From: a virus
Taxonomy: Duplodnaviria; Caudoviricetes
Length of the DNA stretch: 64,000 nt
IMG/VR virus record: IMGVR_UViG_3300021255_000140
Coordinates: 1-64,000 of that record
Reading direction: 5' to 3' (one strand)
The notes under the pieces are model-generated. The model was not told where the DNA came from, did no database searches, and was given only the letters and a program-made list of their open reading frames with translations. This document shows, piece after piece, positions 31,658-54,707 of this stretch (the stretch's first letter is position 1; each line of letters starts with the position of its first letter). Made by a program: the position numbers and the translations under genes.

Positions 31658-31846
31658 TAATTTTGGAGTGTCAAATTCTACTTGCGGCACGAAGAAGCCG
31701 CCAATATAGGTGGCTATTTTTCTGCCTCCAACTTTACGGAACAAAACCATAACTGCACCGCGTGGGGTAGCGGAAACGCCCCCAAGGTATTCGCAAGTAG
31801 AAACCTGACAGCGCGTAGTGCAGTTTCTTTTTGTCAAATTCTACTT
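31658..31846 (+). ncRNA. C4/CI-like antisense RNA leader of the antirepressor
   Basis: TAATTTTG promoter at 31658; direct repeat TGTCAAATTCTACTT at 31669-31683 and 31832-31846; near-complement AAGTAGAA-ACC-TGACA at 31795-31810 inside a stem (31752-31763/31811-31824). Confidence 0.6.
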
Positions 31847-50639: not shown

Positions 50640-51197
50640 TTAGAATAAATTAAGTTGTTCAGGTTTTCGCTGTTTGTTTCCAGCGTTGAGTGTTTGTTCA
50701 ATAAACAGATTCTTGAAAATATGGAACATGCAACTGACTACAATCGAGTTGCCCGCAAGTTTATAACAACTGCTGTTTGATACACCACTGTTCATAATCT
50801 TGTCGATGTCTTTGTCCTCCACATCCATCAGGCGAAATGCCTCGCGTGGTGTAAGTTTACGTATTCGCATCACAACAGGAAGTATGTCTTCACATAGCTG
50901 TATAGCCTCATTTCTCTCCAAAAACTGATAATTGCATATTTTGTAAATGGAGTAGTCGACTATTTCTTTAAGATAGTCAGTATGGCACCATTCGGCAGCT
51001 AAAATTTTCAGTCTTCTCTTTGTTTCATCCGTAAATGATACCGCTTTTTCTTCGCTGTGCTTAAATGCGTAAAGTTCCGGGAAAATTACCTTAAATACTT
51101 TTAGGCATTCATCTTGTGTATTCTCTATCCCGTACAACCTGCGGCAAGCACGATATACGATTCTTACTAACCTGTGAAAATTCTTATTTTGTTTCAT
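50640..51197 (-). CDS. C5-cytosine DNA methyltransferase, C-terminal part (motifs IX-X)
   Basis: RIRKLTPREAFRLM (IX), YKLAGNSIVV (X). Confidence 0.88.
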   Translation of the reverse strand: MKQNKNFHRLVRIVYRACRRLYGIENTQDECLKVFKVIFPELYAFKHSEEKAVSFTDETKRRLKILAAEWCHTDYLKEIVDYSIYKICNYQFLERNEAIQLCEDILPVVMRIRKLTPREAFRLMDVEDKDIDKIMNSGVSNSSCYKLAGNSIVVSCMFHIFKNLFIEQTLNAGNKQRKPEQLNLF

Positions 51198-51375
51198 ATA
51201 TAATTGATGTTACGTTAAAGTTTGTTAGTGTTCGCAATGTCGGAAAGACATCGTTGGAAAATGGTTCCATTGCCATTATCTCACCAAAGCCTTGACTTCC
51301 GCCCCGTATACTTGCACTGAATACCTGATTCAGATTTACCTCTGGGTTACTTCTCCTAAGTTCAATCTGTTTCAT
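51184..51375 (-). CDS. TRD-like module 16
   Basis: MKQIELRR...FPTLRT...SIIYETK. Confidence 0.7.
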   Translation of the reverse strand: MKQIELRRSNPEVNLNQVFSASIRGGSQGFGEIMAMEPFSNDVFPTLRTLTNFNVTSIIYETK

Positions 51376-51498
51376 TTGCTATAATCAAAAAGAAATTATG
51401 TTGCCAACTTGATGTGGTCACTGCAGGACTTATGCCCTTTCGGTATTCAAATCCGTAGTTGAACCCTCTTGGATAAGCCTTGATGTAGATTAAGTCTC
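51362..51498 (-). CDS. TRD-like module 15 (no ATG at junction; start uncertain)
   Basis: IKAYPRGFNYG...GISPAVTTSSWQHNFFLIIANETD. Confidence 0.55.
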
Positions 51499-51660
51499 GG
51501 CTATTACCATAACTCCCATTTCGCGAAAGCCCTGCCTTGGTGCGATGATGTTGCCCGCATAGTGGTGGGCGGTTGTTAGTGTCACTGCACACCCGTCGAC
51601 ATCGGTGTTTATAAAGACAAACTGTTTCGTTCCTATCCATTTTTTCGTACTATTTTTCAT
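51490..51660 (-). CDS. TRD-like module 14
   Basis: MKNSTKKW...INTDVDGCAVTLTT...GVMVIAET. Confidence 0.7.
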   Translation of the reverse strand: MKNSTKKWIGTKQFVFINTDVDGCAVTLTTAHHYAGNIIAPRQGFREMGVMVIAET

Positions 51661-51838
51661 ATATTTCCGCGACCAAATTATCCTTATTTGTGAATGTCGT
51701 TATCGTTCCCATTATACGATCCCCAACTGTCATATATCTGCCTTGAAATGTTGCACCATCATCACCGTAAAGATGGCGGCGCAACCGCTCTTCGGAAGTC
51801 CTTATCCTGATTATACTTTTAGCATCAGTACACTTCAT
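51650..51838 (-). CDS. TRD-like module 13
   Basis: MKCTDAK...MGTITTFTNKDNLVAEIYEK. Confidence 0.7.
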   Translation of the reverse strand: MKCTDAKSIIRIRTSEERLRRHLYGDDGATFQGRYMTVGDRIMGTITTFTNKDNLVAEIYEK

Positions 51839-51983
51839 ATAATAAAGCAACTAAATAGTCCTTTTGTACGCTTGATATGGCATTACTGAATCTGTCTGAG
51901 TTCATTTCAAGCATCTGCCGATGCTCGGAGGTATACCATTCCCCCTTGCTTCTGCCTCGTGACGCACAACTAATCGCTCTCAT
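51825..51983 (-). CDS. TRD-like module 12
   Basis: MRAISCASRGR...SNAISSVQKDYLVALLYEVY. Confidence 0.7.
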   Translation of the reverse strand: MRAISCASRGRSKGEWYTSEHRQMLEMNSDRFSNAISSVQKDYLVALLYEVY

Positions 51984-52194
51984 CCGCATACACTATCCAG
52001 TATCTTCCCAACGTTTCACTTGCAGACAGTGTCGGTTGTACTCCCATAGCAGAATATATCCTATTCGGCTGGCTATGTGTTCTGCTGAGAAATAAACTGC
52101 AATTATCAAATCTCAGTTTACCATCAAAATAACCGACAAAGACCTCTCTCTCTGATCGCGTCAGAAAATCACCGAATATACTAATCGCTTTCAT
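51970..52194 (-). CDS. TRD-like module 11
   Basis: MKAISIF...SQPNRIYSAMGVQPTLSASE...IVYADESD. Confidence 0.7.
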   Translation of the reverse strand: MKAISIFGDFLTRSEREVFVGYFDGKLRFDNCSLFLSRTHSQPNRIYSAMGVQPTLSASETLGRYWIVYADESD

Positions 52195-52342
52195 ACACCA
52201 TCAAAATTTTCGTTTCAACACCGCTATGACAGCCAACGCACAAACATGGAGATATGCCTTTTTTATCATACACCAATCCATTCTGTTGGGAGTTATACAC
52301 AAAGCCCGCAACTATTGGGTGGATAGCATCAAACCGTTTCAT
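52181..52342 (-). CDS. TRD-like module 10
   Basis: MKRFDAI...QNGLVYDKKGISPCLCVG...KILMVYESD. Confidence 0.7.
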   Translation of the reverse strand: MKRFDAIHPIVAGFVYNSQQNGLVYDKKGISPCLCVGCHSGVETKILMVYESD

Positions 52343-52496
52343 AAGCTACTGTTATTTTGGGCTGCCTATGACCGCCGCCGCTACTACAGTCAAGGGTAGG
52401 AGAGATACCGTATTTATCGTATACCCTTCCAGCTTGTGAATTGCTCGGGCTGAAGTACAGATAACCTATCTGCCGAACTCTATCAAAACGTTTCAT
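52329..52496 (-). CDS. TRD-like module 9
   Basis: MKRFDRVRQIG...SQAGRVYDKYGISPTLDCSSGGGHRQPKITVAYETV. Confidence 0.7.
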   Translation of the reverse strand: MKRFDRVRQIGYLYFSPSNSQAGRVYDKYGISPTLDCSSGGGHRQPKITVAYETV

Positions 52497-52650
52497 ATAT
52501 CACGGCTATTTTGGGAGATGTATTCCATCCTCCGCCACTGAACGTAGTGATTGTATTTGAAATAGTTTTTTTGTGCCAGTTGTCAATCTCACCTTCGGCA
52601 TTTCTCGACCACCCGTAGTAATCTATTTTGCACAGTTTAATTCGTTTCAT
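52483..52650 (-). CDS. TRD-like module 8
   Basis: MKRIKL...GWSRN...ISNTITTFSGGGWNTSPKIAVIYETF. Confidence 0.7.
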   Translation of the reverse strand: MKRIKLCKIDYYGWSRNAEGEIDNWHKKTISNTITTFSGGGWNTSPKIAVIYETF

Positions 52651-52807
52651 GACAGCACGGAATTATAGGTTGAAGATTGCCACCTGCACTATAGTCTTTA
52701 ATAGTAGGGGCTATGCCACTGGTGTCATAAACTCTCCTTCTATTCGGATTAATTCTTTTTGCAGAGTCAGTAAGATTGCAGATTTGCTTGATGTTACTCT
52801 GTTTCAT
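52637..52807 (-). CDS. TRD-like module 7
   Basis: MKQSNIKQICNL...NPNRRRVYDTSGIAPTIKD..AGGNLQPIIPCCHETN. Confidence 0.7.
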   Translation of the reverse strand: MKQSNIKQICNLTDSAKRINPNRRRVYDTSGIAPTIKDYSAGGNLQPIIPCCHETN

Positions 52808-52951
52808 ATACTACAATCACACCAGTTGCTCCAAAACCATTTTTTTCTGGAAATTAATACGCCCCGTCTTGAAATAACTTGCCTTCAAAGTCCTGCATAT
52901 ACCATCAGACGCATCATTCAATGGTACAATACGTACTCTACTTAGTTTCAA
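52794..52951 (-). pseudogene. TRD-like module 6, frameshifted at A7 tract
   Basis: (TTG)KLSRVRIVPLNDASDGICRTLKASYFK...NFQKK / NGFGATGVIVVYETE; 158 nt = 3n-1; T7 at 52840-52846. Confidence 0.65.
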
Positions 52952-53109
52952 CTGCTTGCGTAATGAGTTTATTCCCATCATCGTATCTTGCTGTAATAGT
53001 TATATGAATACCTATATGGTATGCTTGGTTGTAACTATCCAGACATACCCCCACCCATAAATGGAACATTGCCGCTCTCAATAAGTCTTAATGCTCTTTC
53101 GCTTTTCAT
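52938..53109 (-). pseudogene. TRD-like module 5, frameshifted at G5 tract
   Basis: MKSERALRLIESGNVPFMGG / VCLDSYNQ...ITITARYD...TQAVETK; 172 nt = 3n+1; C5 at 53048-53052. Confidence 0.65.
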
Positions 53110-53113
53110 CTTA

Positions 53114-53299
53114 TTAAGTCTCGATAACTTGCGTTACGTAATAATGGTTATAATGGTCAATTCTCGTCGTTACTGTAACGAACACATCATCGCGAACTTG
53201 TTGATTATATAAGTCAATGCATTGTCCCCCATGTAGCGCAATCTTGCCACTTTCAATCAGTTGCGACATTCTTATTCCGCCACTCTTACCTTTTTTCAT
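53114..53299 (-). CDS. TRD-like module 4
   Basis: MKKGKSGG...LIESGK..HGGQCIDLYNQ...VTVTTRID...TQVIET. Confidence 0.7.
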   Translation of the reverse strand: MKKGKSGGIRMSQLIESGKIALHGGQCIDLYNQQVRDDVFVTVTTRIDHYNHYYVTQVIET

Positions 53300-53426
53300 A
53301 GATTTCAATCACTTTCTGCACTCTATCAGACATGGGGTTAGAAGGAATGGTAAACGCAACGTCCTTAATGCTGATGGAAGGTTTGTTTCTGTCGCCAACC
53401 AGTTCAAAAATCTTAAAACGTTTCAT
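53286..53426 (-). CDS. TRD-like module 3
   Basis: MKRFKIFELVGDR...VAFTIPSNPMSDRVQKVIEIYEKR. Confidence 0.7.
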   Translation of the reverse strand: MKRFKIFELVGDRNKPSISIKDVAFTIPSNPMSDRVQKVIEIYEKR

Positions 53427-53581
53427 ATACTACTCCAATAGACATTTTAGGGAAATGTGCGGTGCTTATCCAGTTCGCCGGCCATTGTGTTTCATACACT
53501 GCCGTAATCGTCGGAGATAAACCATCTGAGGTCGTCGGTAGTCCGATACGTCGGATGGGGGGTAAATCTATTCTGCCTCAT
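53413..53581 (-). pseudogene. TRD-like module 2, frameshifted at C6 tract
   Basis: MRQNRFTP / IRRIGLPTTSDGLSPTITAVYE...HFPKMSIGVVYETF; 169 nt = 3n+1; G6 at 53557-53562. Confidence 0.65.
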
Positions 53582-53732
53582 ATATATACATCCAACAGCC
53601 TTTCGGATAGTGCTTAAGAGTTATATAATCCTTTATTGCTGCGAACTCATACCTTGTATTCAATGTTGGAAAAACAGTGTCCTTGCAGACATTCTGAGGC
53701 TTAATTCTACTGAGCAATAAAGAAGTTTTCAA
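53568..53732 (-). CDS. TRD-like module 1
   Basis: (TTG)KTSLLL...QNVCKDTVFPTLNTRYE...HYPKGCWMYIYEAE. Confidence 0.7.
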   Translation of the reverse strand: MKTSLLLSRIKPQNVCKDTVFPTLNTRYEFAAIKDYITLKHYPKGCWMYIYEAE

Positions 53733-54498
53733 AATCCTCGTTTTTTTCTTCCGGAAGTTTATTCTTTTTGTCATCCTCTTCGAGACTTTTCCTGCAAAAT
53801 CTTGCAAGCATTTCGTCAGAAAGAAAATACCTCTCGTCAACGTCTTCTTCTAAACAATCGGCAAGGCAAAGTTCAAGTGGAAAAGGCTTTGGAAAATCAT
53901 AAGATGGATCTGGTTCGTCCAGTGTCCTCAATACAGACACGCAAAATACTCTTTCTCTGTTTTGCGGAACACCATAGTGTTTTGCATTGAGTATCTGCCA
54001 GAAATTTGCATATCCATACTTTTCAAGCAATTTCAGCCACTCGTTGAAATACGGCATGAATTTCTTTTGTGTCAGAGCCTTTACATTCTCCATGAGCAGA
54101 TATTTCGGGCGCTTGATGTCGATGGCTTTTTCACACTCCCAGAGTAGGCTCGACCTTGTCCCGCTACCTTTTGCCAGTCCTGCCTGACGTCCAGCATTGG
54201 AAACGCTTTGGCAGGGGAAAGAAAAAGTAAACAAATCGAAATCAGGCACATCCTGCCACATTATCTTAGTAATGTCTCCGTAATTCTTACTCCCGTCAGG
54301 GAACAATGCTCTATTTGCGATGACGGCAGGCTGATTGTCTATCTGCTGTTTGCTTTCAGGGTCAAATTCAGCCCATCCTACTCTCACAAAGTCAAAATTG
54401 GGATATGTTTCTTTGAGCCTTTTTAACGCTAATGCCTGGCTTGAATAGCCCGCAAAAGCTTCAAATACCCGTAATGGGTTCTTTTTATTGTATACCAT
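53707..54498 (-). CDS. C5-cytosine DNA methyltransferase, N-terminal catalytic part (motifs I-VIII)
   Basis: FEAFAGYSS (I), GDIT (III), SFPCQ (IV, catalytic Cys), MENV (VI), YGVPQNRERVF (VIII); stops before TRD and motifs IX-X. Confidence 0.92.
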   Translation of the reverse strand: MVYNKKNPLRVFEAFAGYSSQALALKRLKETYPNFDFVRVGWAEFDPESKQQIDNQPAVIANRALFPDGSKNYGDITKIMWQDVPDFDLFTFSFPCQSVSNAGRQAGLAKGSGTRSSLLWECEKAIDIKRPKYLLMENVKALTQKKFMPYFNEWLKLLEKYGYANFWQILNAKHYGVPQNRERVFCVSVLRTLDEPDPSYDFPKPFPLELCLADCLEEDVDERYFLSDEMLARFCRKSLEEDDKKNKLPEEKNEDFENFFIAQ

Positions 54499-54539: not shown

Positions 54540-54707
54540 TGGTCCGGGGAAGCATCGAACTTCCCAATACCCTTTGACGGCGTAATCTTAAAGCTTGGAT
54601 GTGAGGGTACTATTTACGGGAGTCGAACCTAACGACCTCACTTGCTACCGAGACTATATCCGCACTTCAAGTTAATAGTACGATGCGCAATCCGTCCGTT
54701 TCGGACC
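54540..54707 (-). ncRNA. Nested tRNA-like structured RNA
   Basis: Outer GGTCCG/CGGACC-A acceptor with T arm GGAAG-TTCGATG-CTTCC; inner 75 nt unit 54607-54681 closed by GTACTATT/AATAGTAC containing AGGTCGTTAGGTTCGACTCC. Confidence 0.55.

Follow-up and report, generated by a model that had tools for sequence, protein, structure and literature searches.

Multispecific C5-cytosine methyltransferases (C5-MTases) of phages are a textbook case of modular DNA recognition and have been described so far as single polypeptides. In the temperate phages of Bacillus, multiple target recognition domains (TRDs) are arrayed in one such chain (review, PMC12707154). Other C5-MTases are known in pieces: M.AquI is split in its variable region, with motifs I-VIII on one subunit and IX-X on the other, M.EcoHK31I needs a small second polypeptide with motif IX, and fragments of M.BspRI, M.BsuRI, M.HhaI and M.SssI complement each other (PMC3404938). 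In the EcoKI system, hsdM and hsdS overlap by 1 nt and are translationally coupled (PMC3510504). The locus considered here lies in a 64,000-nt stretch of phage DNA, positions 1 to 64,000 of the IMG/VR record IMGVR_UViG_3300021255_000140 (hereafter the window), and encodes a C5-MTase in pieces on the minus strand (54498-50640). An N-terminal and a C-terminal open reading frame (ORF) are separated by 2.5 kb of short ORFs with the TRD signature xPT(L/I)...GG.

These short ORFs form an array of 16 TRD-like modules and 17 junctions. The junction is stereotyped; a small family of gut-phage methyltransferases conserves it, and selection acts on it. We consider it probable that the array is an operon of translationally coupled micro-genes, each of which would supply one stand-alone TRD subunit that docks on shared N- and C-terminal subunits. 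With such a layout the phage can probably produce, lose, exchange or silence individual DNA specificities and still keep its enzyme.

The split methyltransferase and its junctions

The N-terminal ORF holds motifs I-VIII, including FSFPCQ (with the Pro-Cys of motif IV), ENV (VI) and QNRER (VIII), all read directly. Gene callers give it the same length of 263 aa in the near-identical contigs L097 and L098; an alternative TTG start is present at 54567. The C-terminal ORF holds motifs IX (RKLTPRE) and X (GNSIVV) and scores 27.9 bits against PF00145 (cut-off 22). Ahead of these motifs it carries a helical domain of ~100 aa that is specific to this type of array: among 1.84 billion representatives searched, the domain was found in 26 clusters only, all of 89-261 aa, and in no full-length methyltransferase. 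When folded alone, the C-terminal subunit reached a mean predicted local distance difference test (pLDDT) score of 62.5, and a Foldseek search of its fold against the PDB (E <= 0.001) gave no match. The N-terminal part, every TRD and the C-terminal part lie in separate frames parted by stops, as adjacent ORFs with one split at each edge of the variable region. The relative L001, which has one TRD, likewise consists of three ORFs, with a ATGATTGA overlap. In several relatives the N-terminal catalytic ORF contains an intein-like insertion of ~370-390 aa right after the Pro-Cys of motif IV, between FPC and Q and itself reading F...HNC (L001 5690-7696; L009 3047-4942; L082 310-2718).

The features of the locus are the following, in the order of their translation.

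53707..54498, minus strand: N-terminal catalytic subunit ORF, 263 aa (MVYNKK...FFIAQ); PF00145 positions 2-225, E 3.6e-45
53568..53774, minus strand: M1, first TRD micro-ORF (..FPTLNTRYE..MYIYEAE-stop); starts at ATG 53774 (68-nt overlap) or TTG 53732 (26-nt overlap)
53413..53581, minus strand: M2; ATG 53581, 14-nt overlap; interrupted at the poly-C 53557-53562 (C6); ends ..GVVYETF-stop
53286..53426, minus strand: M4 micro-ORF, 46 aa; ATG 53426, 14-nt overlap
53114..53299, minus strand: M5 micro-ORF, 61 aa; ATG 53299, 14-nt overlap; ends ..VIET-stop (TAA), then a 4-nt gap
52938..53109, minus strand: M6; ATG 53109, in the +1 frame of M5; interrupted at a G-run (plus-strand C5 at 53048)
52794..52951, minus strand: M7; TTG 52951, 14-nt overlap; interrupted at the A7 run 52840-52846
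52637..52807, minus strand: M8 micro-ORF, 56 aa; 14-nt overlap
52483..52650, minus strand: M9 micro-ORF, 55 aa; junction CAT GAA (H-E), 14-nt overlap
52329..52496, minus strand: M10 micro-ORF, 55 aa; canonical TRD, ..RVYDKYGISPTLDCSSGGG..PKITVAYETV-stop
52181..52342, minus strand: M11 micro-ORF, 53 aa; 14-nt overlap; A6 run at ~52259
51970..52194, minus strand: M12 micro-ORF, 74 aa; 14-nt overlap
51825..51983, minus strand: M13 micro-ORF, 52 aa; junction GAT GAG (D-E), 14-nt overlap
51650..51838, minus strand: M14 micro-ORF, 62 aa; 14-nt overlap
51490..51660, minus strand: M15 micro-ORF, 56 aa; 11-nt overlap; ends ..VIAET-stop
51362..51499, minus strand: M16, TRD-like reading frame, ..GFEYRKGISPAVTTSSWQHNFF..ANETD-stop; no canonical start at the junction
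51184..51375, minus strand: M17 micro-ORF, 63 aa; junction AAT GAA (N-E), 14-nt overlap
50640..51197, minus strand: C-terminal subunit ORF, 185 aa; ATG 51197, 14-nt overlap; PF00145 positions 269-322

M2 comprises what a first-pass annotation, made from the sequence alone, had taken for two modules (2 and 3), and the next module is named M4. Intact orthologues of 56-58 aa in L097 (C8, 56 aa) and in the more distant arrays L004 and L006 identify it as a single module, and the array therefore has 16. Twelve modules and both core ORFs are intact in the window; M2, M6 and M7 each contain an internal interruption, at a C6, a G5 and an A7 run respectively.

Pairwise identity among the modules is only ~23%, and a Pfam search of single modules matched no family. 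Their assignment as TRDs is supported by BLASTP matches of seven module types to internal TRDs of single-chain relatives (E 1e-4 to 4e-12), the strongest being that of M5 to L019 (E 4e-12). M16 matches the last TRD of the single-chain L034 (E 8e-7, BLASTP); in single-chain relatives this type of TRD occupies the last position before motif IX. Stand-alone homologues of 52-57 aa ending in ..YETx are common in other metagenomes, and M13 has many homologues of this kind and length.

All the junction starts claimed in the first-pass annotation were re-derived from the window sequence. The 14-nt overlap with a shift to the +1 frame stands at 13 of the 17 junctions (starts at 53581, 53426, 53299, 52951, 52807, 52650, 52496, 52342, 52194, 51983, 51838, 51375 and 51197), as does the single 11-nt overlap at 51660 (M14 to M15). 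The start codon, ATG and once TTG (52951), is formed by the xAT GAR of the preceding module's terminal (Y)E. One or two codons beyond the junction Glu the upstream ORF stops, which gives the overlap of 11 or 14 nt and places the next start 8-11 nt upstream of the preceding module's stop. The +1 relation also persists over the 4-nt gap from M5 to M6. The only deviant junction is that of M15 to M16, where GCC GAG ACT TAA stands in a +2 relation and offers no start codon; the sole ATG in the frame of M16, at 51640, begins an ORF of 92 aa, 47 codons of which overlap M15 out of frame. At the end of the catalytic ORF the proposed TTG 53732 and its 26-nt overlap do exist. That this TTG is the real start of M1 is not established, because the frame also contains ATG 53774 and the orthologues of M1, which come first in all eight arrays compared below, have their ATG at a 38-41 nt overlap.

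Conservation, selection and polymorphism of the array

The window comes from a virus record that is complete (103,512 bp, direct terminal repeats). DNA near-identical to it is present in gut and bovine-gut metagenomes from 13 studies, and an independent Logan assembly of the probable source run reproduces the window sequence exactly; two matching runs labelled metatranscriptomic are probably DNA. Five contigs (L097 to L101) form a near-identical set, 97-98% identical to the window and differing from it chiefly within the array. A DNA search of a phage collection returned only an 81-nt match, within the catalytic core. A search with a module profile retrieved 55 proteins from other metagenomes, mostly of 50-66 residues, and nearly all those whose sequence was read end in ..YE plus 0-2 residues. 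Seven further, diverged arrays (L004, L005, L006, L009, L088, L089 and L091) were found through the profile-matched contigs and through loci located with the C-terminal subunit; they lie on phage-size contigs (~100 kb) and span 1.0-2.3 kb. In addition, single-chain multispecific relatives carry the same TRD types (L018, L019, L024, L027, L030 and L082). In a search of species genomes the sole match was a 97-kb contig binned with an uncultured Bacteroidales metagenome-assembled genome, which is weak evidence as a pointer to the host.

The first-pass annotation had held that random decay would not produce such regular junctions and had proposed homologous arrays as the place to look for a kept overlap and motif. 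Both are there: the eight arrays hold 66 ATG junctions, all in +1 and all with an overlap of 11 or 14 nt. The 11-nt form (YET-stop) predominates in L091. Given this recurrence and the low identity among the modules, the regularity is neither chance nor recent copying, and the junctions are conserved gene overlaps in which the downstream start lies within the end of the upstream ORF.

The junction ATG is under selection, through both synonymous and non-conservative choices. Counted without conditioning on ATG, the codon before the terminal Glu is TAT in 50 cases and TAC in 1, against 126 TAT and 98 TAC for internal Tyr of the same ORFs; in the long ORFs of the window TAT makes up 58% of Tyr codons. 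An internal, non-junction AVYE in M2 of L099 uses TAC. Where the residue is not Tyr, the codon is AAT, CAT or GAT, which keep the ATG, or TTT or GTT, which give TTG; Tyr, Asn, His and Asp at the junction all retain xAT. Single-chain relatives have Ala, Leu, Val or Ser before the boundary Glu, and their modules end in ..VAEP, ..LVEP or ..ISEP. Since the Glu is kept in these relatives too, it is a family-wide boundary residue, whereas the Tyr is particular to split junctions and may best be explained as a by-product of the start codon. In a logo of the sequence upstream of the junctions of the eight arrays, T recurs at -12, -6 and -3, as fits the codons of a hydrophobic strand, and there is no Shine-Dalgarno (SD)-like or G-rich motif.

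Every module is under purifying selection in its own frame. Between orthologous modules of the window and of the diverged arrays, the proportion of nonsynonymous differences (pN) is 0.16-0.37 and that of synonymous differences (pS) is ~0.79, which is saturated. Where synonymous divergence can be estimated, the ratio of nonsynonymous to synonymous rates (dN/dS) is 0.09-0.33, with values of 0.17-0.21 for M9 (versus L006 and L088) and ~0.1 for M14 (versus L088 and L089).

Polymorphism within the near-identical set falls on single modules. M2, M6, M7, M11 and M17 are variously frameshifted, truncated or deleted in six phages, with the other modules and both core ORFs intact. M11 is truncated in L099, M17 has a nonsense codon in L097 and has lost its interior in L098 and L099, M2 is absent from L100, and M6 is deleted in L097 and in a contig of the sequencing run X19. 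Much of the remaining variation lies in homopolymer tracts, at 53557-53562, 53048-53052, 52840-52846 and ~52259, which differ in length between the phages of the set and between sequencing runs. These tracts are intragenic, and their differences in length shift the frame and turn single TRD ORFs on or off in differing combinations. The poly-C of M2 occurs as C6, C8, C8AC4 and C9 across the set: the module is off in the window (C6), on in L097 (C8), and off with other lengths in L098, L099, L101 and run X4. The poly-G of M6 is interrupted in the window (off) and is G9 in L098 and L099 (off); the module is on in L101 (G8) and L100 (an 8-nt version), and is also intact in L004. The poly-A of M7 is A7 in the window (off) and A8 in L098, L099, L101 and runs X4, X7 and X19 (on). 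The A-run of M11 is one base shorter in X7, and this run yielded two assembled contigs with different G-tract lengths. Of ten runs of G or C of at least 5 nt in the whole window, four lie in the 2.55-kb array, a density ~16-fold that of the rest of the window. The tract variation fits contingency-type switching of single specificities; the alternative reading is decay at mutational hot spots.

Proposed separate translation of the modules and its alternatives

Selection on the ATG, selection on each module in its own frame and tolerance of broken modules together favour independent initiation at each junction. The simplest route would be termination followed by re-initiation, and of the three alternatives offered in the first-pass annotation, namely coupling of separately made subunits, programmed frameshifting and recombination at the junction, translational coupling is the best supported. 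Each of the ~16 ORFs (46-74 codons) would encode one stand-alone TRD, and a ribosome ending one module would meet the next ATG a few nucleotides behind it and re-initiate there, in a type of host that does not use SD sites. An SD motif precedes 7 of the 69 genes of the phage, and the leaders are A/T-rich, which is the style of Bacteroidota. The TRD micro-protein is predicted to dock non-covalently between the N-terminal subunit (motifs I-VIII) and the C-terminal subunit (helical domain and motifs IX-X). The outcome would be a set of heterotrimeric C5-MTases that differ in specificity and may protect the phage DNA against many host restriction systems. A single TRD could be frameshifted, deleted or exchanged without loss of the enzyme, because each TRD would be its own gene; in a single-chain multispecific enzyme any frameshift costs motifs IX-X.

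A three-chain model of the N-terminal subunit, the C-terminal subunit and M10 reached an ipSAE of 0.86, against 0.41 for the best of three controls. Of 80 solved complexes, 58 attained the mark that it reached, as did 2 of 110 mismatched pairs. Contact agreement between runs was at least 93%, and the pLDDT of the partner at least 77. In the model the TRD contacts motif VIII (N-terminal subunit, residues 178-182), the strand before motif IX (C-terminal subunit, residues 106-115) and the helical domain (residues 12, 15, 28 and 32), where the contacted residues are conserved. The model indicates compatibility, not binding.

Several points weigh against the operon of coupled TRD genes. The conserved Glu and the downstream Lys/Arg at the junction are dual-coded, and part of the junction conservation is therefore a protein constraint rather than a translational one. 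The complex was modelled with three chains and author-built alignments, unlike the calibration set, and its pass may reflect likeness to solved monomeric C5-MTases, because the TRD sits in the same place there. The stoichiometry is awkward, with one N- and one C-terminal subunit for 16 TRDs, and the C-terminal ORF comes at the end of a long coupling chain. M16 lacks a start at its junction and the start of M1 is ambiguous. Furthermore, our literature search found no precedent for a functional three-piece C5-MTase with a free TRD of ~50 aa.

The strongest rival holds that the junction is kept mainly as a recombination anchor for the gain, loss, reordering and exchange of TRD cassettes. As the main reason for the junction this seems unlikely to us, and it is compatible with translation as proposed above. 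Events of the expected kind do occur. L100 lacks exactly M2 and preserves the 14-nt junction; in L097 and in the contig of run X19 one period (158 nt) is missing at M6, which joins the ATG of M6 to the body of M7 by a crossover at an AGAG microhomology, 12-17 nt past the start codons. In L097 and L100 the M7 allele is divergent, with 49% identity over 52912-52808 and 98-99% identity in the flanks on either side, and the right edge of the swapped segment is exactly the ATG of M8. Module order and content also vary among the diverged arrays (M10/M11 in the window, M11/M10 in L004). The breakpoints, however, do not fall within TATGAAAC, the sequence that the first-pass annotation had proposed as the crossover point: those of the deletions are found 12-20 nt past the start codons or within a module, that of M17 in L098 and L099 being internal, and the joint in L100 includes 9 unrelated bases. 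Moreover, the 8-14 bases that are conserved do not suffice for ordinary homologous recombination, the array has no recombinase gene beside it, and survival of only those variants that preserve the junction would give the same picture. The idea that conserved junction-proximal sequence bounds module gain, loss and exchange is thus partly supported: the right edge of the allele swap is at a junction and single modules are lost, while the deletion breakpoints lie outside the motif itself.

Far less probable is that the array is a decaying, non-functional remnant of a single-chain multispecific methyltransferase whose junctions were inherited from tandem duplication of a unit of 3n+1 nt. It would account for the four of 16 window modules that are interrupted or startless (M2, M6, M7 and M16) and for the further nonsense, frameshift and deletion alleles of close relatives; yet the other twelve modules and both core ORFs remain intact, the protein sequence of orthologous modules is conserved despite synonymous saturation, the junction ATG is maintained across eight arrays, and the architecture occurs in phages from at least 13 sequencing studies.

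We give marginally less credit still to programmed +1 frameshifting at each junction, which would yield one long multispecific polypeptide or chains of variable length. The uniform +1 relation with a stop within 1-3 codons resembles the prfB shift site, a few junctions read TTT TGA, on which tRNA-Phe could slip, and single-chain enzymes with the same TRD types exist. The prfB combination of a slippery P-site codon next to a stop or hungry codon with an SD-like stimulator is nevertheless absent: the codon before the stop varies (TTT, GAG, AAT, GAT, TAC, AAA, GTT, AGG), all three stop codons occur, and upstream there is only coding periodicity, in a phage without SD use. Nor would frameshifting need an ATG, which is selected here at a synonymous site. 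Seventeen shifts in series would leave a negligible yield. In a fused chain a broken module would cost motifs IX-X, yet such modules have been retained in several lineages in which the remainder of the array is intact. Stop-codon recoding cannot join the modules, because all three stops are used and the frame changes all the same.

Split and fused forms of such arrays appear to interconvert. In distant phage methyltransferases (L020 4873-6207; L071 5569-5893) split and in-frame fused boundaries (..VVIVEP..) are mixed within one array, the split ones reading ..IEIYE..-stop with ATG in +1 or ..GYETEKKDE-stop with a 26-nt overlap. The protein P0002 (NCBI, 103 aa, from a 985-bp contig) may by its look be two fused modules with the linker IGNPKLSLP. 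This linker seems to correspond to a typical module end (..RQPK..YET) read in +1; judging from the protein alone, an M10-like module frameshifted in its Gly-run would continue into the frame of the next.

The operon of coupled TRD genes also admits a bolder version, which we put forward tentatively and would sooner doubt than accept. Free micro-proteins of ~55 aa from a hypermutable cassette array would compete for one split core, and tracts and junction-anchored exchange would switch, delete or swap specificities. The phage population would then possess a combinatorial, phase-variable methylome that hedges between methylation-sensitive and methylation-dependent restriction.

Elsewhere in the window, 31751-31827 on the plus strand matches the Rfam family c4-2 RNA (RF02944; 53.9 bits, E 4.8e-9), a family of antisense regulators in P1/P7-type phages. 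Upstream of the operon (54540-54707, minus strand), a tRNA-within-a-tRNA structure was considered and rejected: ARAGORN found no tRNA in the window, and Rfam gave no match to this segment at gathering thresholds. In some relatives HNH/NUMOD homing-endonuclease genes flank the array (L004 2259-2867 and 6494-7297; L006 8573-9112). Genes for N6/N4 methyltransferases (PF01555) occur near the array as well: just upstream of it in L006, and at a distance of a few kb downstream in L004, L097, L098 and L099.

Comparison with known systems

If the proposed organization is correct, C5-MTases would gain a true specificity-subunit mode, like that of Type I enzymes. Phages could evolve, and possibly phase-vary, single anti-restriction specificities without risk to the enzyme, and modules of 50 aa with a defined docking interface would represent a natural toolkit for the design of targeted cytosine methylation. 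There is also a consequence for annotation, as gene callers resolve such loci only into two truncated methylases and a scatter of hypothetical proteins of 50 aa.

A close likeness is to the enzymes of the phages SPR, phi3T, rho11s and H2. These too are phage orphan C5-MTases with tandem TRDs between motifs VIII and IX, each TRD being an independent module of ~40-60 aa, and their presumed role is protection from many restriction systems. The multispecific enzymes of Bacillus phages have 3-5 TRDs; the present array has 16 modules. It shares the tandem TRDs of the SPR/phi3T type without their single polypeptide: the TRDs are separate ORFs with their own start and stop, each in the +1 frame of the preceding module. 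Furthermore, the C-terminal part of the array enzyme has the extra helical domain, and the Tyr before the conserved Glu supplies an ATG in place of Ala, Leu or Val. We found no description in the literature of a C5-MTase with its TRDs as separate ORFs.

M.AquI and M.EcoHK31I are C5-MTases that work as non-covalent assemblies, as is predicted for the enzyme of this locus, and the locus shares with the M.AquI type the encoding by adjacent ORFs split in the variable region. They differ in consisting of two pieces with one specificity, whereas three pieces, a free TRD of ~55 aa and many TRDs per core are predicted here. Type I HsdS would offer a parallel as an exchangeable specificity subunit on a common methyltransferase core, diversified by cassette exchange. 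The class is unrelated (N6-adenine, with another fold), HsdS has ~400 aa with two TRDs each, and its diversity arises from invertases and from recombination between hsdS copies, not from an array of overlapping micro-ORFs. Phasevarions share the coding homopolymers that change length between close genomes and shift the frame on or off; they involve bacterial Type III mod or Type I genes and switch the enzyme as a whole, whereas here single modules of a phage enzyme would switch independently.

The kind of enzyme, a multispecific phage C5-MTase, is therefore known, and the variant is new among the literature searched. Its new features would be the separately translated, overlapping TRD micro-genes, a three-part enzyme with a helical domain, and switching and exchange at the level of the single module.

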